Shown here in pieces: positions 1,112 to 40,439 of a stretch of 64,000 bases of DNA. The stretch spans positions 63,242,001 through 63,306,000 of the forward strand of contig NC_086108.1 of the NCBI RefSeq assembly GCF_963921235.1. Reading direction: 5' to 3'. Each line of letters starts with the position of its first letter. The first letter of the stretch is position 1. The stretch comes from Mobula hypostoma. Taxonomy: Eukaryota. The notes beneath the pieces are model-generated. The model searched no databases. It was not told the DNA's origin and saw nothing but the letters and a program-made list of their open reading frames with translations. A program made the position numbers and the translations under genes.

Positions 1112-1516
1112 TGTTATTCTCAACATAGCCTCTTTCCACGCTGTCTTTAAACTCATGTGATTCACTGAAAAATCTATTATACTACTGTATTGTACAACAA
1201 CTTTAAAAAAAATGTTTGGGTATTGATCGCAGTAATGTATAACAGTCTGGAAAACCTGCCAGTCCAACGCCACCAAAGTTCCAAGGGTTGTGGATTATCA
1301 GTGTTTTACTTTACTGAAAAAAAAGAACAGTTTTCCTCAGCTCCAGATGCATTTGCATTATAAAAACCCTAGTGCAGAATTTGCAGCTCTGCTTTGCTCA
1401 TCTTCTAATTAAGAAGCTTTGAATTTAATTTAGTTTTAAGTTAATCAGACAATATATTTTCACATGTAAACTATCTGAATCCTTTTCCTTCATGTTAATC
1501 AACTTTTAAGTTTCAG

Positions 1517-1591
1517 ATTCAGGACCAGAATTAATGATCACGAATCCATATCCATCTTGTAATCTACTTAATGCTACAGCAATGGATGAAG
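1517..1591 (+). CDS. Candidate internal exon of the divergent AP-2-like gene: (D)SGPELMITNPYPSCNLLNATAMDE
   Basis: Acceptor ttttaagtttcag and donor GAAG|gtacag. 75 nt, open, phase 1-1. Its last G plus the AA opening exon 11080 forms an in-frame GAA. No homology support. Confidence 0.45.
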
Positions 1592-1806: not shown

Positions 1807-4662
1807 ATTTTTTGTTATAACCCTGAAAAGAAACTAAAATTGCAAACTGTGAAATTGTTACTTCAAATAAAATGTTCTTTAACATATTTCTTTAAATAAG
1901 TTGTTTGCAGAATTTAGTAATGTGTAAATACATTTTTTAATTTTAACTTTGTCCCAGTAATTTTTCCATTGCTGTTTTGTTTTACTCATGCTAATTTGTT
2001 TGAGTTCCTCATTCACTGTGTTTTTCCATTGTTTCTGGGATGATTTTTCTGTATCTTTCTTGAAGACAAATATTTGTTTAACCTCTTCCATTTTATCATT
2101 ACTCAGCACAATTTCTATTGCTTCTGTATAAAGGGTCCACTGAAATGTAAGATAATTTTCCTTCTTGTAGATTTAATGCAACTTTTACAGTCTGTGTTTA
2201 TGTTTATCATTGGTCTGCCTTTGCATTCTATTTTCCCATTGCTTATCAATGCCTGGGTCTGACTTCACTGAATTCTGAAATTTTCCTAACTTGTAGACTT
2301 GGTGGTTTTTATTTTTATCTTTAAAGCTATGGTTGCATCACTTTTCCTATTAGAATTTTTGCCTTAAAGGCATATCATATTGTAAGTGGTGTATTCAGAC
2401 CAAATATAACCATTGTTGCCATACTGAAATTCATTGTTAAGGGCAACTGTTTAAATTAATGTCTCTGTGTGGTCATAGAGCTTCCCGTATATTCCCAGTG
2501 AAAGTAGATCTGATGATCTGTTCTCTTCCTTCCCCATGTTTCTACATCCATGGCCTATTTCTGATTGTTATTTAAATCAGCTGTACAAAGGAATTAAGAA
2601 GGAAAGCATGATTTTCTACTGAAACAAGCCAAAAGATACATGTTAATACCTATCCAGAAATAGGGTCGCTGCGAAATGATAGTGATATAATTAAGTTTTG
2701 AAGCTGAGAAACAAATATACAGAAGTGTAGCTGGTGCAGTTAAGACCTGACCAATCTAGTATAGAGGTGGAATTAAGCACCCGTACTTGACTCTAAGGAC
2801 CATGGATTGTAACATGAGAGGGATGGGTAGCTGCTTTTTGACTGGCATACGTACAGTGGGCTGAATAGTCTGCATGACATACAGTAAATTTTGATCAGTC
2901 CATGAAAATAGGAGCAGTAGTAGGCCACACATCCTCTCAACCCTACTTAATTATTTAGTACGGCATTGAAAATGATTACACTTGTCCTCAGTATTATTCC
3001 TCTGCCCGAGTCCCATAATCATGACAGTGTAGGAGCCACGTATCTACTTTCTGCCCATTGGGGAAATGGATCTCTTTTCTTTGTCTTTGTTGTAGTTTGT
3101 GACGCGTTTATTATGGTAATCTGTCACGTGGGTTGGGGTGTGTTAAAAGCACATGAGTACAGTTGCGTATTCTCATTTTGTTAGTTGTTTAGTGGAGAGT
3201 GAGTAAGTCACAGGAAATGATCATTTTTGTTGACTGTTAATTGGAACATTATGTGACTGCTTAAATATGCTAATTAGTTTGGCTAATTTTGTTATTTTGT
3301 TAACTTGATCGCTAAGTAAAATGCTATTAGAACACATAGTTACGCTATTCAACTGCAAGTTAGATGGTATGAGTTCCTATATTGAAAAGGCACAAAGAAA
3401 AACAAAAACACCCAGTATCAATGGTGATTTATTTGTTCCTCAAGTGTGTGGGAAATGTGAACAAGACTCCTAAGAGATAGTTCAGGGTGCTTCCTATCAT
3501 CCTGCAATAATGATGCACTCTAAATCTATGTCATATCCAAAGGCTCTCAGTGCTCATGGGGACGTTAACTTACAGCTTGGAAACACTTTTGTTTTAGATG
3601 ATAAGAGGTCAAAATAATACTATTGATATGAGGAAGCAAAATAAAATAACAGTCTTATTGGTACAACAGCAACACATTTCATCTTTGCCCAAATGAGAGA
3701 TTTAGATCTTCGATGGTGAGCCATTGCTCTATCATGCATTCATGAGGGTTTTGAAAACAGTGTTGAAGGCAAGACTGAAGTTTATAGTGATTACCTCTAT
3801 TTCCTTGAACAATACACTAGAGGTCACCGTAGAGAACTTGTCAGAAGTTGCCAGCATGGTGACCCTAAGAAAGATATCTTAATAGCTAAGGTTTTACTAC
3901 AGAACATTTCAGTAATGAACAGTAAATTACATCCGCCTACATGCAAGAGGCTTTTTCTTGGGTACCTATCAAATCTGAAGTTATGGAACTTACTCAGGTA
4001 TACAGTCTTTCTCTTAGAGGCAGTTGCAGTGCTGTGGAAAAATTGCAGTACATGCGCGAACTGGACATGCCTACTAATATATCAGTTGTCGTAAAGAAAT
4101 TGCCCTATGTGCTTAGGGATAAATAGAGGACATTAGCCTATAAACTGCAAGAAATGCACAACCATAAGATTACATTCACTGATGTTGAGGCAAGTGAAGA
4201 TTACTCCACATCTGTTGATTGAAAATATACAGAATGCTGCATCACCTGCAATAAACAAAGATAAGAAGTCACAATTTCATTCTGAGGCTGAAGGAAGCAG
4301 CTTTGCTACTACTGTAGCCACAATGGGAAGTAAAGATATAACTGAACCTGGAACTGATGGAAGGGAAATGGTCTCATCAGCCAAAAGGATTTGTCTGTTC
4401 TCTGGGAATAAATATACTTTGGATTTGTGCCCTCTGCTGGAGAAAAGGGCTCATAGTGAGAAGATTGCCTTCCTAAAAGAAAATTGTGTCTGCTTTAGTT
4501 GTTTGCCTACTGGACACTTCAGCAAAGATTGTAGGAAGTGTCTCTTATGCAAGGTATGCAGTGGCAAGCATCCCAGCATATTTCATATTCACTCTAATGA
4601 AAAGGGTTCAGAATCAAAACAAGCCATTAAAGAATCAGACACAGCAGTGATTAGTGCCCTTG

Positions 4663-6267
4663 AATAAGATATAGGAGCAGAATTAGGCCATTTGGCTCAT
4701 CGAGTCTGCTCTGCCATTTCATCACGGCTGATTCTATTTTCCTCGGCCCCAGTCTCCTGCCTTCCCCCCATTTCCCTTCATGCCCTGACCAATCAAAAAT
4801 TTATCAATCTCTGCCTTAAATATACATAAAGGTTTACCCTCCACAGCTGCCTGTGGCAAAGAATTCCACAGATTCACCACTCTCTGGCTAAAGAAATTCC
4901 TCCTCATCTCTGTTCTAAAATGAGACTCCTCTATTCTGAGGCTGTGCCCTCTGGTCTTAGACTCTCCCACCATAGGAAATATCTTCTCCACATCCAGTCT
5001 ATCAAGGCCTTTCACCATTCAATAGGTTTCAATGAGCTAATCCCTCATTCTTCTGAATTCCAGGGAATATAGGCCTGGAGTCACCAAATGCTTTTTATAT
5101 GAGAAGCCATTCAATCCTGGAATTATTTTTGTGAACCTCTTTTGAACCCTTCCCAGTTGCAGCACATCCTTTCTAGGATAAGGGACCTAAACTTGCCAAC
5201 AGTACTCCAAGTGAGGCCTTGCCAGTGCTTTATAAATTCTCAACATTACATCCTTGCTTTTATATTCTAGTCCTCTTGAAATGAATGCGAACATCACATC
5301 TATCTTCCTCACCAGCGTCTCAAACTGCAAATTAACCTTTAGTGAATCAAACCTTGCACGAGGACTCCCAAGTGTCTTTGCAACTCAGTTTTTTGTATTT
5401 TCTCTCCATTTATAAAATAGTCAACTGTTTCATTTCTTCTACCAAGATGCACGACCATACACTTCCTGACACTCTATTCCATCTGCCATTTCTTTGTCCA
5501 TTCTCCTAATCTGTCTTAAGTTCTTCTGTAGCCTCACTATTTCCTCAAAGCTACCTGCCACTCCACCTGTCTTCATATCGTCTGAAAACTTTGCAACAAA
5601 GCCATCAATTCATCATCCTAATCATTGACATATAATGTAAAAAGAATCAGACCCTTTGAAACACCACTAGTCACCGGCAGCCAGTCAGAAAAGGCTCTTT
5701 GTATTCCCACTGTTTGCCTCCTGCCAATCAGCTACTGCTTTATCCATGCTAGAATCTTTCCTGTAATACCATGGGCTCGTAGCTTGCTAAGCAGCCTCAT
5801 GTGTGGCACCTTGTTAAAGGTCTTCTGAAAATCCAGTAAACAACATGAACCGATTCTCCTTTGTCTATTCTGCTTGTTACTTCTTCAAATAATTCCATAA
5901 TATTTGTCAGGCAGAAATTTCCCTTGAGGACATTATGGCCTATTTTATCATGTGCCTCCAAGTACCCTGAGACCTCATCCTTAATAATCAACTCCCAACA
6001 TTTTCCCAACCAGTGAGATCAGACTAACTGGTCTATAGTTTCCTTTCTTCTGCCTCCCTCCCTTCTTGAAGATTGGAGTGACATTTGCAATTTTCCAGTC
6101 TTCCATAACTGTTCCAGAGTCTAGTGATTCTTGAAAGATCATTACTAATACCTCCATGGTCCCTTTAGTTATCTCTTTCAGAACTCTGGGGTGTACAACA
6201 TCTAGTCCAAGTGACTTATGTACCTTCAGACCTTTCAGTTTCCCAAGAACCTTATCTCTAGTTATGG
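4663..6267 (-). mobile_element. CR1 LINE fragment inserted in the BEL element between gag and protease
   Basis: Minus-strand ORFs with KKGNYRPVSL and RRNFFSQRVVNLWNSLP. The BEL frame rejoins across the insert as SAL|VSNGLTEAG. Confidence 0.9.
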
Positions 6268-8308
6268 TATCTAATGGCCTCACAGAAGCTGGTGATCATG
6301 ATTGTAAACTTCCTGTAGTTCCAGTACAAGTGAAGTCTAAGAAGGGTAACAAGACAGTGGTTACTTATACTTTCCTAGATCAAGGAAGCACAGCAGTCTT
6401 CTGCACAAAGAGCCTCATGAACAAACTCAACCTCACAGGAACCAGGACATGCATTCTCTTATGTCGTGAGTGGTTACATTGTTTCAGGATTGGAAGTGGC
6501 TGGCTTAAATGGTGAAAACTGTTGTGAATTGCCTAACATCTGTACACAGGGAAGTGTGCCTGTCCATGGAGGGATCATTCCATATCAAGGGGATCTCCAG
6601 GAATGGTCTCATCTGGAACATGTCTATTTGCCAGAGACTCATTCAGAAATTGAACTGCTGAGAGGGACAAATGTGCCTAAAGTATTAGAGCCATTGCAAG
6701 TGATTCACAATGTTAATGAAGGACCCAATGCAATTAGAACAATGTTGAGTTGAGAATGAATTGACCACTGAAAGGAGAGAATGGTGATGGAAGAGACTGT
6801 GCACAGTCAAAGCTGACAGTTAACGGGATCTCAGTTTTGAACTTTTGGTTTCGGTAGCGGCAGTTCAAGGCAGACTTCCCTGAATACAGTCAGGGTGAAC
6901 AACTTGGTTTATCAAGAGAAGATCACAAGTTCATGGAGCTGGTTATGAATTTTGCAGATTTGATGGATGCCCACTACCAGATTAGTTTATCTTTGAGAAG
7001 GAAAGAGGTTAATATGCCAAATAATAGGAAGGTTCTTGAACTGTGTGCTGTAAACCTAAGAACGAGTTTTAAGAATGATTTGTCATTTCACTCTGACCTC
7101 ACAGCTTTCATGAAGGCTGTCATCTCCAAAGGTTATGCCAAAAAAGTGCCGGCAGGGGATATTGGATGACTGTGATGGGAAAGTCTGGCATATTTTTCAT
7201 TGTGGTGTTTATCACCCCAGAAATGGTAAACTTCGGGTTGACTGTGGAGCAATTGTTCAGGGAATATCACTTAATGCTCAGCTTTTACAGGGACCAGATC
7301 TTACGTGCTTACTGATTTTAGTCATAACCAGATTGAGAAAAAAATCAGTGTTTAATCAGGTTAAAGTACTAGTGGAAGATGCAGATCTGCTGAGGTTTCT
7401 TGGTGGCTTGATAATGACCTCTCAGCCAAGATATGTTGGACTTTAGAATCGTGCTACATCTCTTTGGTACAACTTGAACAAACTCTGCCAACTTCACTTA
7501 GGAAATGCGCAGAAGACAATGAAGAATAGTTCAGCTGTGAGACGGTGGATAAGGTTTTGTATTGCTTCTATGTTGATGACAGCCTTATGTAGTGTCCTCT
7601 GAGCAAGAAGTGGTCTCTCTCATTCATAACCTTGTATCCATTTGTGCTAGAAGTGGCTTTTGACTCACAAATTGGATCAGCAAAAGACATGAAGGATTTG
7701 GTTTTGGATCAAGATTTACCTTCAGTGGGGAGAGTACTGGTTGTTCAATTGTGCATTCAGGCTGATACTTTCAAGTTTAAGATCACGATCCAAGATAGAC
7801 CACTCACGAGAAGGGGGATCCTCTCCACAGCTATTTCCATCTATGATCCTCTAGGAATCTTTAAGTCCAATGGTGTTATCTGCTAAGAATATCCTACAAG
7901 ATCCATATAAAAAAGGATTTGGCTGGGATGACACTGTATCAACATCTGTTGGTCACATGTGGACAAGCTGGCTGGAAGACCCCAAGGTTGTTAGATGGTC
8001 AAAACCCCTGTATTTTGGAGAAGTTACTACTGCACAGTTGCACCACTTCACAGATGCAAGCAAAGATGGCTAAGGAGCAGTGACCTATCGATTGTTGCAC
8101 AACTGGCCCTGTCAGGTGCATGGTGCTTTTATCATGGGAAAATTTAGGGTTGTTCCGTTGAAGTCAGTTTCCATCCCTCATATGGAGCTCATCGCTGCTA
8201 CGATGGCAAGCTATATGGACACATTGTGGAGGAAGAAGTTGCACATGTAGCTTCAGGACTCAGTGTTTTGGACTGATAGTGCTTGTGTGCTGAAGTGTAC
8301 CAAGAATG

Positions 8309-8409
8309 AGTCCTGATGAAGGGTCTTGGCCCAAAACGTTGACTTATTTACTCTTTTCCATAAGTGTTGCTTGGCCTGTTGAGTTCCTCCAGCATTTTGT
8401 GTGTGTTGC
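8309..8409 (+). mobile_element. Short Penelope-like pLTR insertion with a degenerate hammerhead motif
   Basis: agtcCTGATGAagggtcttggcccAAAAcgttgact...gtgtgttgc, interrupting BEL pol. Confidence 0.65.
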
Positions 8410-8507
8410 AAGAGTGAAACTTCCAGGTTCCAACCTTCGTTGCAAAAGTAGTTTTAGAAATTCCTAAGGTCTCATAAACATCTCAATGGACATATGTAAA
8501 CATTTAC

Positions 8508-8613
8508 ATATTACTATTTAACTATTTATGGTTTTATTACTATTTAATTATTTATGGTGCAACTGTAACTAAAACCAATTTCCCCGGGGATCAATGAGGT
8601 ATGACTATGACTA
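8508..8613 (+). mobile_element. 3' tail of a Rex1/Babar-like LINE
   Basis: ggtgcaactgtaactaaaaccaatttccccggggatcaatgaggtatgactatgact; reverse-complement match to 34703-34800. Confidence 0.6.
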
Positions 8614-10786
8614 TTTTAAGCAAACTGGCGGATGTGGCATTGAGAGAGTTGAAGGTGAAAGCACTCCTGAAGAATGAGAAATAAGTGTCAGGCCTCGGTA
8701 TCTTCTTCAGACTAAAAGCAATGGCCTGTGAATCCCAATTGTTGTGTGAACTTCTGCTAGATAATCCAGAGGTCAAGGGGAGAGTTGCAATGAATTCCAT
8801 GCAGATTGAAAAGGAGGTGGACACTTCTCATCTTGGGCCCACTTGAAGAAGACAGTGGCCTAGATTCATCGAGTAAGGAACCTTCTCTTGTTTCTTTGTA
8901 GGAAGAGGAAGCAAGTGAACATTACCCTTGCTCTGTCAGACTTGGATGAAGAACAACAAGAGTATTCTTTGGAGAGAAAGATTGAGAATGCCAAAGTTCA
9001 GATCAGTTGAGGTTGTCTGAGTGGAGGAGCTCAGAAAGGCTAAAATGGAGATCACTGAGTTTTGCCAAGTTTTCAAAGGGGAGAACGTATGAGAAGCAAC
9101 AGCCATATTTCAAGGTCAATTCAGTACTTGAGGATGGTGTCTTGAGAGTTGGTGAATGGCTTAGTAGTGCAGCTGTACCTGAAGAGTCTAAACATCCTGT
9201 TAAACTGGCAAAGGATCTTTTATGTCTCAGACTTCATTCTGAGGCATGTACATCAAGTGGGACATGGTAGCCAAAACCGCATGTCATCCAAAACCACGTC
9301 ATCCAGGTTGCATTAAAAATACTGGATTTCTAGTGTGCTAGTAGAGCCATAAAAAGAATCCTGTCTATGAATGTTGTTTGTCAACAGTTGCATGCAGCTC
9401 CAGGATGCCAGCACGTGGCAGGTCTGCCTCTGGATAGGGTCTCATCAGATAAACCTCCGTTTACATGTGTAGGAGTGGACTACTTTGGACCCTTTGAGGT
9501 GAACATCAGAAAGAGTACAGTGAAGAGGTGTGGGGTCATATTTATATGCATGGCTACACAAACTGTTCACATTGAAGTGGCATCTTCTTTAAACATAGAT
9601 TCCTTTGCTAATGCACTTCAACACTTTATAGCATGAGGAGGACAGGTTCGTGAACTGCACTCTGATAATGCAACAAACTTTGTTGGAGCTGAACGTGAGT
9701 TGCGAGAAGCCATTGAGAAGTGGAATCATTCACGATTCAGTGATTTTTTATCTTCAAAAAGGAATTAAGTGGATTTTTAACTCCCTGGCTGGTTCATACC
9801 TTGGAGAACATGTGAGAGATTGATCAAGTATGTGCAAAAGGTCCTCAATTCCACCACGAACATACAGAATCTTGACAAAGATGGTTTCCATACAGTCCTT
9901 TGTGAAGTAGAGGCTATTATCAATGGTTGTCCAATTACTGATGCATCCTTTGATCCCAATGATTTGGAAGCACTAATTCCCAACCAGCTGTTGCTTCTGA
10001 AGACCTCACCATCCTTACTACCAGGAGGGTTCAAGAGGAAGAGGTTTATGCTCATTGTAGATGGAAGCAGGTCCAGTACTTGCGAAACTTGCTTTGAAAA
10101 TGGTGAGGCAAAGAGTGTTTCCTACAGTTATGGGAATGTAAGAAATGGTCAGATGTGAAACTTAATTTCCTCCTGGGAGACATTGTGCTTACATTTGATG
10201 ACACAGTGCCTCAAAACTCATGGAATGTGGGAAGAGTCATCCAAATCTTTCCAGACGGAAGAGGATTTGTGTGGCAGCTGTGCATCAAGACCAAGACCAG
10301 GTGTCTGGACAGGCCTATAATTCGTTATTTTGCTAACTGGATCTCCAATTGGAATGCTATTAGAACATGTAGTTACACTATTATTGCTATTAGACCACTA
10401 CATAGCTAATTTAGTTTTAAAATCGCTACAAGGTCATTCACCTTTGCTGATTTCATAATAAGGGATCGAATATACCTTTTTTGGTTTGGATATTCATTAT
10501 TTGGAAGCACGTAATACGTTTTCAAGTACCTTAACTTAGTCCCTCAGCGGCTTTGGTTTGTTTTCAAGTAACCACTACAAACAGTATGTTCAAACCATAA
10601 GAAAACTCTCTTGGTTCTTACATCACTCATTACAATAAGGCATTGATAATTTTCTAAAAGAGATGATAAGCATAAAGCTCATTGAATGACTATCCACTCA
10701 TTGTTAATATTTACCCTAAATAGAGGGCCTGAAATACTTCCTCCAAAGTCTCAACTATGAAATGGTGAAGGAGAAACAAAAGCGTA

Positions 10787-10946: not shown

Positions 10947-11079
10947 AACAAAAACATAATATTGGTAAAAATTGACAATGTTGCTATCTTCATTGCACCC
11001 TTTGTATTGTCATGGTACAAGATGCATCAAATTCTTGTAATAATAGTAAATCTATAATAATGCTTTCTTTATGTTTCAG

Positions 11080-11449
11080 AACAAATTGTTGTTGCCCATG
11101 TGCCTGCTTTGCTCCCCTCAGCGGATGATAAAAAGAGGAAAGTTAAATATCCTGTGACTAAGGGAGAAATTAGAAGGCGCATTATTCCCCCTGAAAAAAT
11201 GTCCAAAACAGTCATTAAAAGCTATCTGAGGTTAAGAAGGGATAACCGCTTTGATATCCGCCAACTTCTGGATCTTCCTGTAACTGGTTATGACCGAACC
11301 CTTCATACATCTTTTACTCGACTCTGTGAGGGAGAGGCAAAAACACTGACAGAAAACTTTCATCAGCTGAACCTTGGCTACTTTCCTGTTGATGAATGTG
11401 CCAGCATGATGGCAGAAAAAGCTGCAGCATCAGAAATATATGCAGCAAG
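11080..11449 (+). CDS. Divergent AP-2 (TFAP2)-domain protein, main exon (basic region and first HSH helix)
   Basis: Acceptor ctttctttatgtttcag. Open frame QIVVAHVP...KYPVTKGEIRRRIIPPEKM...TRLCEGEAKTLTENF...YFPVDEC...IYAAR, matching TFAP2 motifs KYKVTVxEVQRRLSPPE, LVEGEAVHLARDF and EFPAK. Donor AG|gcaagt. Confidence 0.85.
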
Positions 11450-13652
11450 GCAAGTGGGTAATCTGTATTTAATTGAGAGCAACTGAAGTTAATTAGCTAA
11501 TAAGAATTATATGTTGGATCCATCCGGAGGACCTGAGTTTGAATCCCAAGCTTAACTGACATTTGTATTCCTTAAGAAGGTAAGTTTAAAAGATGTACAG
11601 TAGTTAATTCCCTTGTAATAGAAGTGGCTGAGAGTAGAATTTTCTAATCCCTTCTTCCGTTCTGACAAGAGACTTCCATCTTAAATGTTTCCATTAATTG
11701 CTGCTCCATAGTGTCCAAATTCTGAACCATTTTGTCCCACCAGTTGAAGTCATGGCATAAATCCAGGCATGAAAAATGGAATTAAATGCAATGATTGAAA
11801 TGTTCTAAAGATCTGTTTTATTACATATGACATCTTACAGGAAGAAATTGCTTATCTGATAGGTTGTGTAAAGTTAACCATAAGATTTATACCCTTGATT
11901 ATTCAGCATTTCGAGAACTATTATGGGAGATCGTACAAACTTTAAAGATGTAGAATTGAACTAGTAGTTGTTTGATTTATAATTTAGGTAAATCATGTTC
12001 TATGTGGGTTTACAGTCATAAAATTTGTATTTCTGCCCCTTGTAGCTACTTGTTGGGCTTTTTGCTCAATTTTATTTAGAATATGTTCGACAGCAGTTTT
12101 CTTCATCACAGTTTTCATCATTCCTTTTTCTGTTAAGTTTAATTTTCATAGGATTTTGATTTCTCAGAATTCATTGTACAAGGTTTTGGAATGAAAAAAG
12201 ATTTGAATACTTAATATATGTGGTATTTTGGAGGAGAAATTATCATCAGTATTCAAACAATTAAGTAAAGGTTATGGGATGGAGCAAATGTGATGCTAAG
12301 ATTATAAATAAGGACATCAGAACTTGGAAGTATTAAGCTAAACTTTGAGTTACATCCTGCAAAACTTGCCATCAGCTTCTACATAGCGGACTCCAATTGA
12401 AATGTTCTGCCTAAAAATGAAATCCTCTCCAATAACTAGAAAATGTTTAAAGCAAAACATTTTCATCATTTTTAGATTGTCTGTAATTTTCTGGATTCCA
12501 TCTATTGGGCATTGATTTTATTAACTGGATTTTTACTCACATTAAAACAATAATAATCAATATTCAAATAGAGTGCAGAGAAGGAAAATATTAACATCAC
12601 TTTCAGAAATCATGTGTTAAATCTTCCAAATCAAAGGTACCACTATAAGGCTCAGATTTGCCCACGTTTCTCCATGTTTCCAGCAAATATCTGAGTTTAT
12701 CTTGGCATCTTTCACCTTGTAACCACTGACATAGTCTGCCTCTCTGTTGTTCTTAATGGAGTCCAGTACAGCAGTGTAACCTTCCAGAAGCCAAATCTGT
12801 AAATCTGTTGTTAAACTGCCTCGAGTACAACAGCCCAAATCATATGAATGTGAGAAATTGGCTTTATGAAAAAAGGAGTTATTTCTAGTTAATTTAAATG
12901 TATTTCTATTGCTTTAATTTTGTATTTATTTTATGTCAGGTCCCAAATCTTAAACATCGTCAATATCAATGTCAAATATATTCAAACATGACACCTTTGA
13001 CAGGTAGTGAGTTAAGGGTGAGGCTGTGCTGGTAGTCCAGGCTCTCTCTGAGTACATCTGAGTAGCTGACTTCATTGAGATGTACTTCACACTGCAAATG
13101 GCCCTGCAAAATACAAGGTACTGGCATCTTGCAGTCAACTTATCATGGGCCATATTTAAAGAAACGGGATCTTGGGATGACAGATGGTGATCTGTCTCTA
13201 ATCAACAGAGCATCAGTATACTATATGTTTCAATATCATCCCTAACAATATTGGGATTATTTCATAGGTAGTTTGACTGGGAAAGAACAGCCACTCACAT
13301 TAAATAAGATGTGATTTGTTCAGTTGTGTCTGAATGGTAGCTTTTGTTTGGGCCTTTGCAGGAGTGACCAGTACTGCAATACCAGAGAAAATCTAAGACA
13401 AACTTGAGACTTGTATCACAATATTTGCAATCTTCCCTTCACTGTTTTTAAGGATGGCTTGTGTGGGGAGTTGAAAAATAAAACTAATACGTATGGGGGT
13501 GAGTGAAGAACATTTTACCTTTAATCTTATCATCTGACCCTATTCCCTAATGCCAACATGTTGGGTATTCAAAATGGAAAAAAAAATACCACTTCTCCCT
13601 TACTGAGCATTCATAGCTTTTTTTAAATAAAATGTTGTATTCTGCAGATATA

Positions 13653-15279
13653 CAGTGGCATGCAAAAGTTGGGGCACCCTGGTCAAAATTTCTGTTACTG
13701 TGAATAGTTAAATGAGTAGAAGATGAACTGATCTCCAAAAGTCATAAAGTTAAAGATGAAACATTCTTTTCAACATTTTAAGCCAGATGAGTGTATTATT
13801 TTTGTTTTGTACAATTTTAGAGTGGAGAAAAAAAGGAAAGGGGCAGCATGCAAAAGTTTGGGCACCCCAAGAGATTTGAGCTCTCAGATAACTTTTAGCA
13901 AGGTCTCAGACCTTAAATAGCTGGTTAGGGCTATGGCTTGTTCGCAGTCATCGTTAGGAAAGGCCAGGTGATGCAAATTGCAAAGCTTTATAAATACCCT
14001 GACTCCTCAAACCTTGTCCCAACGATCAGCAGCCATGGGCTCCTTTAAACAGCTGCCTAGCGCTCTGAAAATTAAAATAAATGATGCCCACAAAGCAGGA
14101 GTAAGCTATAAGAAGATAGCAAAGCGTTTTCAGCTAGCCGTTTCCTCAGTTGGTAATGTCATTAAGAAATGGCAGTTAACAGGAACGGTGGAGGTCAAGT
14201 TGAGGTTTGGAAGACCAAGAAAACTTTCCGAGAGAACTGCTCATAGGATTGCTAGAACGGGAAATCAAAACCCCCGTTTGAGTGTAAAAGACCTTCAGGA
14301 AGATTTAGCAGACTCTGCAGTGGTGGTGCACTGTTCTACTGTGCAGCGACACCTGCACAAATATGACCTTCATGGAAGAGTCATCAGAAGGAAACCTTCC
14401 CTGCATCCTCACCACAAACTTCAGCGTCAGAAGTTTGCAAAGGAACATCTAAACAAGCCTGATGCATTTTGGAAACAAGTCCTGTGGACTGATGAAGTTA
14501 AAATAGAACTTTTAGGCCGCAGTGAGCAAAGGTATGTCTGGAGAAAAAAGGGTGCAGAATTTCATGATAAGAACACCTCTCCAACTGTTAAGCATGGGGG
14601 TGGATCGATCATGCTTTGGGCTTGCGTTGCAGCCAGTGGCACGGGGAACATTTCACTGGTAGAGGGAAGAATGAATTCAATTAAATACCAGCAAATTCTG
14701 GAAGCAAACATCACACCGTTGGTAAAAAAAAAGCTGAAGATGAAAGGATGATGCTTCTACAACAGGATAATAATCCTAAACACACCTCAAAATCCACAAT
14801 GGACTACCTCAAGAGGCGCAAGCTGAAGGTTTTGCCATGGCTCTCACACTCCCCCGACCTAAACGTCATCAATAATCTGTGGATAGACCTCAAAAGAGCA
14901 GTGTATACAAGATGGCCCAAGAATCTCACAGAACTAGAAGCCTTTTGCAAGGAAGAATGAGTGAACATCCCCCAAACAAGAATTGAAAGACTCTTAGTTG
15001 GCTACAGAAAGTGTTTACAAGCTGTGATATTTGCCAAGGGGGGTGTTACTAAGTATTGACCATGCAGGGTGCCCAAACTGTTGCTTTGGGCCCTTTTCCT
15101 TTTTTGTTATTTTGAAACTGTAAAAGATGGAAACAAAAAAGTAATCTTGCTTAAAATATTAAAGAAATGTGTCATCTTTAACTTTATGCCTTTTGGAAAT
15201 CAGTTCATCTTTTACTCGCTTAGCTATTCACAGCAACAGAAATTTTGACCAGGGGTGTCCAAACTTTTGCATGCCACTG
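13653..15279 (+). mobile_element. Full-length Tc1-family DNA transposon (IR/DR type) with a disabled transposase
   Basis: TA-flanked TIRs CAGTGGCATGCAAAAGTT...AACTTTTGCATGCCACTG. The inverted repeats are about 215 bp, with inner direct repeats at ~13848 and ~15067. Confidence 0.95.
14035..15059 (+). pseudogene. Tc1 DDE transposase pseudogene
   Basis: Motifs GRPRK, LWTDE, VKHGGGSIMLW, QQDNNPKH and SPDLNVINNLW (catalytic E replaced by N). Frameshift near 14724-14750 and a stop at 14958. Confidence 0.9.
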
Positions 15280-16514
15280 TATGCCTTTATCTTTATAATC
15301 TGTCACCTAATTTTTAATATATACATTGAGAATAAACACTGATGTCATTCAGTTTGGATTAATTTTAACGAAGGCATGGATTCAATCATTCTCCATCATA
15401 AATTAGTTATTTGCAATTGGTTTCTATCTGCCTGTAACTATTTTTAGTTTTTTTCTAAACATAATGCCAAAGTAAAACAAGAATCGAACTACATTTTTCA
15501 TAAGTTTTAGTTTTAAAGCACAGTTTGCATCAGTATATTTATATTCTGTCATATTTATTTTCTTTACCTTCATCTTGCATAAGGCAGTTGCAAGAAATAT
15601 TGAATATTCTAAATCAATTAGTTTTTATGATCATTATAATTATTTAAATCAATTAGTCCTTGACAATTAAAATAACTTTTTTCATGAGGATGTCTGTTTG
15701 ACTAAATATCTGGTTATTTTAAATGTAAGATAAATATTTCTGTTGTCGATTATTTCTTTCCCTTATATTGTATATTTGGAGACCTTTTCCTAATACTTTC
15801 CTAATATAACATCACAATTTACAGCAGGGACATAAAAAGAATAAGTTAAGTAGCATGCATAAGTGAACAAAATAACATAATGTCACATGAATTGTGAATG
15901 TGGTATAGGCACTAGGACTTTAACCGATGTATCAAAAAGAACGTAATAACAGATATCTCACAAAACTAATTGCTGAAACATTGATATCTGAGTGCTTTTG
16001 ACATTTTGAAATCTTTACCTTATAATGACTGCCAGTGCAAGATAAGATATCATTTTACACAATGTTGACCAATTAGTTCCCCTGCATTTCTCAATATTTT
16101 CTAATTAGCATTAGCAGGACATTTTATTGGAATGTTTCTCAGATCTTTTCACAATGCTGTTGTGAATGGGAATTTGCTGTTCGTGATTTGTTACTTTTGA
16201 TCCTGGTTTTTCCTTCTGAATCTCTGGCACTGGAAACTTGGAAATAAGGGCTCTTATAAAATTATATCTGCAATAAATGTGTATCAGAAATGTTTATCTG
16301 CAGAGAAGATTTGAGGGAAGATGAAAACTGTCAAATCAGATGAGGAGCCATTCGTCTGTTGAGATGGCATTGAAATTGCCAAAGATGAGGAGCTCTAAGT
16401 TGTGTGTTAAGAAGGAATGATATCTTTCAGAGAAACATTCCAGAGAATGTGGTTTGGATATGTCATACCAAAATATGTGAATGCAGAAATATGATATGCA
16501 GACAGGATTGGAAG

Positions 16515-18092
16515 TGATTGAATCAACCTATCACGAGAGACCTTAATAAATGCCTTATTGAAGTCCACATAGATAACGTCCAATGCCTTACCCTTATTAA
16601 GCTCCTTCGTCATGTCCTCGAAAAACGTGGTTGTTTGTATGGCATGATCTACCCTGCACAAAGCTGTGTTGACTGCCCCTAAGCACATGATGCCTTACCA
16701 AATGTGCATAAATCCAATAGTTCCACTATCACTGATATGAGGCTCACTGGCTTATAATTATATGAAGAAAGGGACAATGAGATGTATCCTATTAGGCCCT
16801 TGGGATTTATCCAACTTGATGCTGTTCAGAAGACCTAGGACTACCTCTTCCTTAATCTCAAAAATATCTAGCACATTGGCATGCCTCATTTTCCCCCTTT
16901 ACCATCCTCCAAATACTCATTTAGTACCTCAGCCACTTGCTCTGGGTCAAGAAAAAATTCCCTCCTTTATCCTTGAGTGGACCTACCATCTCTTTAGTTA
17001 ATCTCTTTATCTTAACATAAGATGCCTTGGAATTCTCCTTGATGTTGCTTGATAAGGATATTTCATAGCTCGTTTTGGCCTTCCTAATCACCTGCTTGAG
17101 CACTTTCCTATTATCATTATATTGTTCAAAGGCCCAGTCTGATCTTAGCTTTCTAAACCTGTTTGTGCTTTCTTTTACTTCCTGATTAAATTTACAACCT
17201 CTTGAGTCATCCAAGTTTCCCCCTACTTTACCATTCTGCCTTGATCCTTACTAGAACTTGTTGATCCTGAACTTTGATTACTTGGTCCAAGAACAGTTAC
17301 TACCCCTCAACCATTAGGCTCTTGAACAAAAGAAGATAACTTCACTCAACTGCACTTGTCCCATCTTGTAAATGTTCCCACACTTAATGAACCCACTTTC
17401 AGGGACTCTTCCTTTTATGTTCTTGATATTTAGTGCTTATTTTTTTATTTTTGCATTTGCAGTTTGTTGTCTTCTGCATTCAGGTTGAACACCCTAGTTG
17501 GCTGGTCTTTCATTGATCCTGTATAGTTACTATTCTATAGATTTGTTGAGTATGCCCACAAGAAAATGAATCTCAGAGTTGTATATGTTGATATATTTGT
17601 ACTTTGATAATAACTTTTATTATCTTTAAACTTTGATCGGTTGGTGTTGATACAACCATGTGTTAGATGTGGCTTTGTCGAATAGCAGCTGCCTCCAGTC
17701 AACTTTCATTAGCTTCTGTTTTGTCCTGTCACAACTTGCTCTCCCCCGATATAGTACATTACCACAAGATCCAATTTTATCCATACTCACAACGATCTTA
17801 AAACATAATGAATTGTGGTCTTGAGCCCCTAAATTTTCACCCAGTATCCCACTATCGGGTATGTCACCTGGCCTTCTCAATTCCAAAACCAGATCCTGTA
17901 TTTTTTTTCTCCTCTAATTGACTCTCCACATATTTCTCAACTCACTAGCACATGACATTTGTAGTAATCCAAAGATTACAACCTGGAAATCCTGCTGTTT
18001 AGCTTTCTAACAGTCTCCCTAAAGTTCCTATGCAAGATATCATCCCTACTGCTGTCTATGTTATTGGTACTCACATGGACCATCACCTCTGG
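16515..18092 (-). mobile_element. Highly decayed CR1 LINE (ORF1 esterase and ORF2 pieces), with a Rex1/L2-like tail at ~17295-17615
   Basis: ORF pieces DVIYVDFNKAF, KEMVGPLKD and VMVHVSTNNI. Confidence 0.65.
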
Positions 18093-19043
18093 CCATATGC
18101 TCCATGGTAGGGTTGGTATGTTTCTGATGATGTGCCGTGTTTGGCTTACTCTAAACATAGTATTTAGTCTGATGGCCAGAAAGCTCAATTTTGGTTTCAT
18201 CAGTCCATAGAACCTTCTTCCAGCTGACTTTAGAGTCTCTCACATGCGTACTGGCAAAGTCTAGCTGAGATTTCATGTGTGCTTTTTTTCAACAATGGCC
18301 TTCTCTTTGCCATTCTCCCATAAAGCTGCAACTGGTAAAGCACCTGGGCAATTGTTGTTCTATGCACAGTCTCTCCAGCCACTGAAACTTGTAACTCCTC
18401 CAGAGTTGTCATAGGTCTCTTGGTGGTCTCCCTCACTACTCCCTTTGATGGCCTGCTCTAGGCAAATTTACAGGTGTGCCATATTCTTTCCATTTCTTGA
18501 TGATTGACTTAACTGTACTCCAAGGGATACTCAGTGACTTGGAAATTTTCTATTTTCTTATATCCATCTCCTGACGTGCTTTTGAATAACTTTTTTGCGG
18601 AAGTGCTTGAAGTGTTCTTTTGTCTTCATGGTGTAGTTTTTGCCAAGATGTTGACTCACCAGCAGTTGGACCTTCCAGATACCTGTGTATTCTTATTACA
18701 ATCAATTAAAACACCTTGACTGCACACAGGTCTCCAAGAACAGTTCTCCAGTTAACTAATAATGTGACTTCTAAAACCAATTGGTTGCACCAGTAATGAT
18801 TTGGTGTGTCAGATTAAGGGGGGGGGGGTGAAATTGAATACTTATGCAATCAATTATTTTGTTTTACATATTTGTAATTAGATCACTTTGTAGAGATCTC
18901 TCTTCACATTGACACAAAAGTGTCTTCTTCTGTTGATCAGTGTAAAAAAAAAGTCAAATTAAATCCACTGATGTTGTAAAACAATAATACATGAAAACTT
19001 CCAGGTGTGGGGGTGGGGGGCTGAATACTTACTTTAGGCACTG
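18093..19043 (-). mobile_element. Truncated Tc1-family transposon (second family)
   Basis: End reads TA-CAGTGCCTAAAG..GTATTCA on the minus strand. Transposase pieces RETTKRPMTTLEELQ and LYGRMAKRRPLLKK. Confidence 0.8.
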
Positions 19044-19156
19044 TATTTTCATATGAGAAATAGTGATTTTGTTGTAAATTTATTGTATTGATGTATCTCA
19101 AAAGGGGTGATAAAAAACTTACAAGCTTACTAACTTTTAATTTAAATTTTCTGCAG

Positions 19157-19316
19157 AAAGGTGATTGAAGATCTTGATTCAATCATGAACAATTTTATGT
19201 GGCAGGAACACCCATATAATTTAATCACACATGGATTTGGGCCTCAGAACATCAAGGTGGTTTTGAACTTGATAAAGCTACTTCTACGAGAATCACTACG
19301 AAAGTCAGCATCCTAA
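19157..19316 (+). CDS. Divergent AP-2-like protein, terminal exon: KVIEDLDSIMNNFMWQEHPYNLITHGFGPQNIKVVLNLIKLLLRESLRKSAS*
   Basis: Acceptor ttttctgcag. Phase 2 fits the GC donor (AG+A = Arg). YNLITHGFG matches the TFAP2 signature F(N/S)LI(S/T)HGFG, followed by an amphipathic helix and TAA at 19314. Confidence 0.85.
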
Positions 19317-37487: not shown

Positions 37488-40439
37488 TCTTTCTTTTTAA
37501 ATCTTTTTATTGAATAGGTATACAAAAAGGTAAGCCATATAAGCACTAATACACTGTTAGAATATAATAAAGTTACAGGAGATATTAATACAAAAAAAAT
37601 GATACAAACAATGTAATTTAAACATAACATACTAAGATAACATAGTAGTATACTAATTTATATATATATCAATAGAGAAAAAGAAAAAAAAACCCATCGT
37701 GCGACTAACTAAAAGCAAAGCAAAGCAATGGGCTAACTTGGGACCAAGCAGAGTTAAAAAAAACTTAAAATCACGTCCTCAATCCCGACCTCCATTAAAA
37801 ACAGTAAAAAAAACAAGAAGGGTATATAAATATGGAGCAAAAAAAAGAAGAGAAAAAAAAATTACATTAAATGAAAATATTGAATAAAAGATCTCCAGGT
37901 CTGTTCAAATTTAAGTGAGGAATCATAAAGATTGCGTCTAAATTTTCTCCAAATTCAAGCATAATATCGTCTGAGAAAACCAAAAAAAGGTAGTTGGAGC
38001 ATTAAGCTCTTTCCAATGTTGTAAGATACATCTTTTCGCCATTAAAGTAAGAAATGCAATCGTTCTACGGGCTGAAGGAGAAAGATTACTGGAAATTTTA
38101 GGTAGTCCAAAGATAGCAGTAATAGGGTGAGGAGCGATATCTATATTCAATACGTTGGAGATAATATTAAAAATGTCTCTCCAAAAAGTTTCCAGAGTAG
38201 GACCAGACCAAAACACATGAGTTAAAGAGGCTATCTGCCCTGGACATCTATCACAAAAAGGATTAACATGAGAATAAAAGCGAGCTAATTTATCTTTGGA
38301 CATATGTGCTCTATGAACAACTTTAAATTGAATTAGGGAATGTTTAGCACATATAGAGGAAGTATTGACTAATTGTAAAATCTGCCCCCAGTCATCCACG
38401 GAAATGATAGACCCCAATTCCTGTTCCCAATCTACCCTAATCTTATCAAATGGAGCTTTCCTAAGTTTCATAATAATATTATAAATCATAGCCGATGCAC
38501 CTTTCTGACATGGATTAAGGTTAATTATTGTATCTAAAATGTATGTAGGAGGAAGCATAGGAAAAGAAGAAAGTATAGTACTTAGGAAATTTCTAACTTG
38601 TAGATATCTAAAAAAATGTATTCTTGATAAATTATATTTATTAGATAATTGTTCAAAAGACATAAGGGAACCATCTAAAAATAAATCCAAAAACCGTGAA
38701 ATACCCTTAGTCTTCCAAATTTGAAAAGCACGATCCGTAAAAAAGGGAGGAAAAAATATATTACCTAAAATAGGAATCGCTAGCCCAAATTGGTTAAGAT
38801 CAAAAAATTTTCTGAATTGAAACCAAATACGTAAGGTATATTTAACTATCGGGTTAGATACCTGTTTGAGGCGTTTCAAATCAAAAGGAAGAGAGGAACC
38901 TAAAATAGAGCCAAGTGTATAACCCTGAACAGATTGTAATTCCAATGCTACCCATTTAGGAATAGATAGTATATCCTGGTCAAGTAACCAAAATTTCATA
39001 TGTTGAATATTAATTGCCCAATAATAGAATCTAAAGTTAGGTAATGCTAAACCTCCATCTCTCTTAGCTTTCTGTAAATGTATTTTACCCAGCCTCGAGT
39101 TTTTATTTTGCCAAATAAATGAAGAGATTTTTGAGTCAACTTTATCAAAAAAAGATTTTGGGACAAAGATTGGTAATGCCTGAAATATATATAGAAATTT
39201 TGGCAAAAAAAACATCTTAACTGCATTAATACGACCAATCAAAGTTAAATATAAAGGAAACCATTTAGATGAAAGTTGAATAATATGATCAATTAAGGGT
39301 AAAAAGTTAATCTTAAATAAATCTTTGTATTTACAAGTAATTTTAATCCCAAGATATGAAAAATAATTATTAATCAATTTAAATGGAAAGTTATGATATA
39401 AGGGAAGTTGTTTATTAATCGGGAAAAGTTCACTCTTATTAAGATTTAATTTATAACCTGAAAAGAGACTAAATTGTGCTAATAACTCTAAAACAGCAGG
39501 GATGGATTTTTGAGGATTAGAAATACATAAAAGTAAGTCATCAGCATAGAGTGATATTTTATGGGATTTTAAGCCCCGAGTTATCCCAGTAATATTTGGA
39601 GATCCTCGAATGGCAATTGCAAGAGGTTCTAATGCAATATCAAATAATAAAGGACTAAGAGGACAACCTTGTCGAGTACCTCGAAAAAGAGGAAAAAAAG
39701 ATGAACTTAGAGAGTTAGTACAGACCAAGGCCACAGGAGAATGATATAACAGTTTGATCCAGGATATAAATTTCGAGCTAAAATTAAACATTTCAAGCAC
39801 CTTAAATAAGTAAGGCCATTCTACTCTATCAAAAGCTTTCTCAGCATCTAAAGAGATAACACATTCAGGAACATTTTGTGAGGGGGTATAAACAATATTT
39901 AACAGTGTGCGAATGTTATAAAAAGAGTAACTACCTTTAATAAAACCCGTTTGGTCTTCCGAAATAATAAAAGGAAGTACTTTTTCTAATCTGTTTGCTA
40001 ATAATTTAGAAAACACTTTAGAATCAACATTTAATAAAGATATTGGTCTATAAGATGCACATTGAACAGGATCTTTATCCTTCTTTAATATTAGAGAAAT
40101 TGACGCTCTATTGAAAGATTCGGGAAGTTTACCAAGTTTTAATGAAGCCTCAAAAACCCTACAGAACCAAGGGATTAATGAAGGTGCAAAACATTTATAA
40201 AATTCTACGGTAAACCCATCAGGGCCAGGAGCTTTCCCCAAATTCATAGAGGAAATAACATTCTTAATCTCATCAGTGGTAATGGGAGTATCTAGCATAG
40301 AAGACATATCCTGTGAAATCTCAGGGAAATCTAGGTTATCTTAAAAATCATTCATATATTTAGAGTCTCGAGGAGACTCTGATTAATATAAGGAAGAATA
40401 AAAATCACAGAAGGTTTGATTAATCCCCGCATGATCAAA
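37488..40439 (-). mobile_element. 5'-truncated L1-clade LINE with an intact RT domain
   Basis: 789-aa ORF with GKAPGPDGF, YRPISLLN, LDAEKAFD, GTRQGCPLSP and LYADD. A-rich tail. 12-bp TSD GGATGGATACTT (37476-37487 and 40440-40451). Inserted in an old CR1 3' remnant. Confidence 0.95.

Follow-up and report, generated by a model that had tools for sequence, protein, structure and literature searches.

A cartilaginous-fish gene that joins a KIAA1958-type N-terminal domain to an AP-2-like domain outside canonical TFAP2

A 64,000-nucleotide window of the Mobula hypostoma genome (contig NC_086108.1, positions 63,242,001 to 63,306,000) encodes, at 11080-11449, a domain that resembles the DNA-binding and dimerisation region of the AP-2 factors TFAP2A-E with several of its motifs changed. 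What gene carries this domain, and what might its product do? A sequence-only reading had implied a modified TFAP2 paralog, either re-targeted to a new DNA motif or acting as a dominant negative. We found that 11080-11449 belongs, as a single exon, to a spliced gene that cartilaginous fish carry in one copy and that encodes ~659 amino acids (aa). This gene is the sixth with an AP-2-type DNA-binding domain (DBD), set apart from the five known AP-2 genes.

The AP-2-like exon is carried by an open frame at 11061-11486 of the window. Its best protein match, P0001, is a 659-aa protein of Mobula birostris, whose upstream exons lie on G000:C50 at 63192810-63193886, 63205749-63205958 and 63209952-63210005 and whose downstream exons fall in the window at 1511-1591, 11080-11449 and 19157-19316. 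The parts of the gene within the window are as follows.

1511..1591, + strand: small linker exon, residues ~457-484, phase 1 to phase 1, located by tblastn with P0001
11080..11449, + strand: AP-2-like exon with the DBD and the first helices of the helix-span-helix (HSH), residues 484-607, from Pfam PF03299 and spliced contigs
11098..11309, + strand: DBD proper, predicted beta1-beta2-alpha1-alpha2-alpha3 from AlphaFold2 secondary structure
11450..19156, + strand: GC-AG intron, phase 2, across which contigs join
19157..19316, + strand: last coding exon, C-terminal half of the short-span HSH, with LITHGFG at 19221-19241 and the stop codon at its end

Transcript contigs of 4/4 runs joined 11449 to 19157 across the GC-AG intron, and in a second contig set the loose ends fitted both neighbouring exons of the AP-2-like exon in 4/4 contigs. 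This evidence comes from 7 different runs in 6 studies, which were classed as RNA by automatic guess only, yet the contigs skip the intron. Contigs extended past the stop codon to at least 19600. The nucleotide differences listed between contigs and window were all synonymous (10/10), 1-2 further differences per contig being outside that list. An alternative GT donor 4 nucleotides downstream, with an AG 4 nucleotides downstream, also keeps the frame (RQV, not RKV); some database models use this GT form, and all 7 runs used the GC form. A second possible acceptor would start the linker exon at 1517. In the database models P0003, P0005, P0007 and P0019 either the last exon, with the THGFG-bearing part of the HSH, or the greater part of the domain is missing; these may be genuine isoforms that cannot dimerise, or errors of annotation.

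Pfam TF_AP-2 (PF03299) matched the exon with 46.2 bits (E 6.3e-12) and the full protein with 54.5 bits, against a cut-off of 23.4. Among human chains, phmmer matched the frame to TFAP2B (E 4.6e-4) and TFAP2A (E 1.2e-3), and the fold predicted by AlphaFold2 for the C-terminal part was a DBD-HSH of AP-2 type. A genome-wide family search returned 20 matches, comprising 19 exons of the five canonical TFAP2 genes and the AP-2-like exon itself. The domain had already been flagged automatically in RefSeq and Pfam, and a literature search that did not cover supplements found no description of the ray gene; what is new is its architecture, the degree to which it is conserved, and that a second family can be recognised.

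Is the gene nevertheless a TFAP2 paralog? In common with TFAP2A-E it has the predicted DBD-HSH fold and the motifs EGEA, FP and THGFG (PF03299; PDB 8J0K, 8J0Q; PMC10450164), as well as the hydrophobic dimer positions, R254 and K226. However, its identity to the five TFAP2 genes of the genome is only 27-30%, while these reach 80-91% among themselves. Its HSH span is ~25 aa shorter, its N-terminal domain is a different one, and the ray protein has no PPxY motif. Unlike canonical TFAP2, the AP-2-like exon is free of internal introns; of the three canonical introns within DBD-HSH, one is common to the ray gene and the other two are missing. The common one is the GC-AG phase-2 intron, which sits at the aligned site of the last canonical domain intron (ATK/Q versus AAR/K) and points to an intron-bearing common ancestor with TFAP2. 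The canonical branch excluded the ray gene both in a 55-row tree (support 99/96; P0085 omitted as too short) and in a 39-row tree to which the genome's five TFAP2 genes were added (100/99). A clade of the ray gene with vertebrate TFAP2 was rejected by the approximately unbiased (AU) test (p=0.0014, under LG+G4 with long branches present). The other N-terminal domain, the absence of 2/3 domain introns and the position outside canonical TFAP2 speak against the paralog interpretation. AP-2-like in fold and probably in dimerisation, the gene is not a member of TFAP2A-E.

Over 11097-11300 the frame reads VPALLPSA...KSYLRLRRDNRFD...GYDRT, and the motif swaps first noticed there (VPGRLSLL to VPALLPSA, the GRRKAA stretch to GYDRTL) are all in the sequence. 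To describe the individual residues we used TFAP2A numbering, anchored by the residue list of PMC10450164 on the canonical-type protein P0084. K506 (11145-11147) and R534 (11229-11231) correspond to K226 and R254 and are kept, as is the equivalent of R266, while T527 (11208-11210) at S247 and R537 (11238-11240) at K257 are conservative changes. Both Arg are lost at R217 and R255, where the ray protein has L494 and L535. The canonical contact motifs VPGRLSLL and LRRAKSK (R217, S222, S247, R255, K257) are not present; relative to canonical proteins, loop 1 has an insertion of 3-4 residues and loop 2 a deletion. Inside 11098..11300 the core KYPVTxGExRRRxxPPE survives. Over its 73 aa the region has 18 K/R and 8 D/E, where a canonical DBD has 15 and 4 over 79 aa. 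The basic region had been called rewritten; the changes are real, but the word overstates them, since the core is kept, the region is still basic and several contacts are kept or conservatively replaced.

According to PMC10450164, K257, S222 and S247 read bases in TFAP2A, R217, K226, R254, R255, K259, R263, R266 and K282 contact the backbone, and loops 1 and 2 set AP-2 specificity and spacing. The same paper reports that binding is not detectable for TFAP2A R217S, is weak for R255G, and falls ~21-fold, from 18 to 382 nM, for TFAP2B K276R, a residue that we took as TFAP2A K257 by an offset of 19. Since three changes in the ray protein lie at sites where human mutations cut binding, its binding to the canonical GCC(N3)GGC site is, by analogy, probably poor or lost.

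The dimerisation motifs reported from the sequence persist, EGEA (11328-11339) and FP (11382-11387) in the same exon as the DBD but beyond the end first given for the altered region (11300), and LITHGFG in the next exon. The shorter span between the HSH helices also proved correct: counted from EGEA up to the THGFG His, it measures 63 aa, against 80-95 aa in 10/11 canonical-type sequences. Two copies of residues 484-659 were predicted to form a homodimer, scoring 0.83 in three runs against 0.00 for the best control, with a contact agreement of at least 95% and a predicted local distance difference test (pLDDT) of 85-86. The mark used to call a homodimer was reached by 21/30 solved homodimers and 0/23 monomers, and among eukaryotes by 17/29 and 0/30. 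In the model interface, L580, Y627, I639 and I646 occupy the positions of TFAP2A V307, F379, V391 and L398. The model thus supports an HSH dimer surface kept in the ray protein, in line with the claim that dimerisation was preserved, although the score behind it may reflect likeness to solved TFAP2 structures.

Searches with the exon recovered 19 proteins, all from cartilaginous fish and named in their sources as uncharacterised or KIAA1958-like. Exon identity was 97-100% in sharks and rays and 91% in Callorhinchus, besides one truncated Rhinoraja model. Within the protein, conservation is highest in the DBD, which is identical at 77/77 positions in 9 sharks and rays and at 74/77 in the chimaera; the last exon, with the C-terminal HSH, is identical at 44-51/52 in seven full-length elasmobranch models, and the linker at 37-77%. 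Such invariance would not be expected if the domain had done no more than lose its binding. A two-domain ortholog outside cartilaginous fish was not found in the protein collection searched, which did not include genomes. Upstream, residues 362-439 of P0001 (G000:C50:63205749-63205958) form a helical block, 55-66/78 identical across orthologs, that had no match in Pfam, Atlas or profile searches; it shows a weak, non-significant resemblance to the AP-2 HSH end.

The N-terminal domain, of ~60 aa, is of KIAA1958/ZNF692 type. Over 60 aa it has 38% identity with the KIAA1958-like exon of the same genome (E 4e-14), and H29, H31, C35, C59 and H63 are invariant in 21/21 rows. As in KIAA1958, described as a domesticated Crypton DUF3504 (PMC3212892), the large N-domain exon ends in phase 1 and an IKxE motif lies near residue 200; in the ray gene this is IKTE, a conserved SUMO-type motif. 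The C-terminal modules differ, AP-2-like in the ray gene and DUF3504, CCDC106 or C2H2 fingers in KIAA1958/ZNF692-like proteins. DUF3504 (PF12012) gave no hit in 7/7 scanned proteins at E<=1, and PF03299 was found in 0/22 of the N-domain hits. The KIAA1958-like exon at L025 535-1710 (- strand) and the ZNF692-like exon at L027 1234-1755 (- strand) have the ~60-aa His/Cys domain in common; no Pfam model or solved-fold match was found for it, and no link of KIAA1958 with ZNF692 through it was found in the literature. Some fish KIAA1958 isoforms (among P0039, P0046, P0056 and P0050) end in CCDC106 domains and one in what is presumably a BEN-like stretch, a pattern that had no Pfam hit. The KIAA1958-type N-terminal exon thus seems prone to being joined to a variety of C-terminal modules.

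Where, then, are the relatives of the AP-2-like module? When 1.84 billion representatives were searched with a profile, 78 hits were obtained, namely 2 clusters of chondrichthyans (E<1e-30), 22 matches to the N-domain and 54 that were AP-2-like. Eleven of these 54 scored 139-283 bits on PF03299, and were termed canonical, and 43 scored 69 bits or less. Names, looked up for 30/76 representatives, placed non-canonical members in Nematostella, Ptychodera, Meganyctiphanes (krill), Armadillidium, lampreys, newts, Lates (zebrafish-type si:ch73-127m5.2), cyprinids, Misgurnus, Astyanax and Dallia; the lamprey member carries the name 'AP-2 gamma-like'. The span was 61-67 aa in 22/23 full-length non-canonical rows (82 in Nematostella), Arg stood at the R254 position in 44/44 and Leu at the R217 position in 29/44, counts biased by the choice of relatives for likeness to the ray gene. 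The canonical exception was one snake TFAP2D model with a 64-aa span. The Leu at R217 and the short span are not shark-specific, many non-canonical relatives sharing them. The ray gene also shares the YLR/YVR helix with the short-span proteins, but its domain is only 23-38% identical to theirs, none of them has the KIAA1958-type N-domain, and no starred tree branch unites it with any of them. In the trees the ray gene falls among these dispersed short-span AP-2-like proteins, outside canonical TFAP2.

On balance, the ray protein would most likely be a homodimeric, sequence-specific regulator with a motif of its own, probably repressive or chromatin-recruiting. It would pair with itself through the short HSH and contact DNA by the retained Arg/Lys core (R534, R537, K506), and the altered loops 1 and 2 could direct it to a half-site or spacing other than GCC(N3)GGC. 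Repression or chromatin recruitment might proceed via the His/Cys N-terminal domain and the IKTE motif, with no route through a PY activation motif. Its likely origin is the joining of a KIAA1958-like large exon to a non-canonical AP-2-like module, before chimaeras and sharks separated. Several observations weigh against this regulator. The homodimer score may derive from solved TFAP2 structures known to the predictor, and in the eukaryote test only 1/7 pairs lacking an older solved relative reached the mark. The equivalents of R217, R255, K259, R263 and K282 are lost and D499 in loop 1 aligns to S222, changes that might leave the protein binding DNA weakly or not at all; in the loop regions, pLDDT drops to 62-76 over residues 531-560. 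DBD conservation shows a function of some kind and does not indicate which. A position as sister to all canonical AP-2 was not rejected (p=0.40), and the deep branches among non-canonical rows lack resolution.

The loss of 5/8 listed backbone-contact residues would also suit a nuclear scaffold without specific DNA binding, whose invariant surface holds a protein or RNA partner. Near-total invariance over the domain, including the DDKKRK and DNRFD loops with their acidic residues, is compatible with such a fixed partner. Yet family members from cnidarian to vertebrate keep the positions of R254 and K257, a count biased by selection with a profile of the ray gene; this fits a shared nucleic-acid contact better, and we consider a scaffold unlikely. 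Slightly less likely is a homodimeric repressor that competes weakly for AP-2-like GC-rich sites, with lower affinity or another spacer. In its favour, the contacts R254, K226 and R266 persist, the replacements of K257 by R and of S247 by T are conservative, and PMC10450164 has TFAP2B K276R still binding at 382 nM; in the same paper, however, loss of R217 or R255 alone abolishes or greatly weakens TFAP2A binding, and the ray protein has lost both, with an insertion in loop 1 and a deletion in loop 2, the loops that govern specificity and spacing. Least probable, by a small margin, is a dominant negative that, like Id proteins, sequesters canonical TFAP2 off DNA in heterodimers. Id proteins have no basic region at all, whereas in the ray protein the DNA-binding region is neither deleted nor decaying and is better conserved than the HSH C-terminal exon (77/77 against 44-51/52), the opposite of what a decoy would lead one to expect. 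In favour of a decoy, L/Y/I/I preserve the hydrophobic character of the four dimer positions known from TFAP2A, the PPxY motif is missing, and the changes resemble binding-defective human alleles (PMC10450164); HSH identity to TFAP2 is low, though, and ~25 span residues are missing. Of the two functions first proposed, re-targeting is thus plausible, canonical binding being likely lost, and the dominant negative is weakened by the conservation of the DBD, higher than anywhere else in the protein, and by its retention of R254 and K226.

The DNA around the exons holds remains of several mobile elements.

4100-10410, + strand: broken remains resembling a long terminal repeat (LTR) retrotransposon, which we take to be BEL/Pao, in the intron upstream of the AP-2-like exon, with DUF5641 at 10107-10406
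13972-14960, + strand: frameshifted Tc1-type transposase (PF01498) inside the GC-AG intron
37938-40340 and 227-1294, - strand: two closely similar pieces of long interspersed nuclear element (LINE) ORF2, one of them open over 800 aa and containing RVT_1

Some non-canonical relatives are fused to other domains, an Ulp1 protease in some teleost members (P0027, P0028) and HTH_psq in one unnamed member (P0049). Proteins P0054, P0150, P0151 and P0153 (Astyanax) and P0031 and P0158 (Misgurnus) combine an Ulp1-like protease, a Cys cluster, tandem acidic repeats and the AP-2-like domain. The AP-2-like domains of four Astyanax Ulp1-fused proteins, with different LOC numbers and on contigs of three lengths, are identical at 176/176 positions, which suggests mobility; among the forms of Pseudorasbora, Misgurnus and Dallia, pairwise identity is 78-82%. 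These Ulp1-fused forms are candidates for an undescribed mobile element. No transposase fused to the AP-2-like domain was found among 5 hits scanned, with PF03299 only, and a terminal repeat was not shown. The ray gene falls outside the Ulp1-fused branch.

A wider and rather doubtful extension is that the AP-2 fold may extend beyond the five TFAP2 genes, as a DNA-binding module that was carried by an undescribed family of animal mobile elements, Ulp1-fused and lately multiplied in Astyanax, and was domesticated repeatedly, in cartilaginous fish, lamprey, newts and teleosts. If so, canonical TFAP2, the neural-crest regulator, would be one branch of that family, and the ray gene, formed by capture behind a KIAA1958-type exon, would be a lineage-specific transcription factor more than 400 million years old with a motif of its own.
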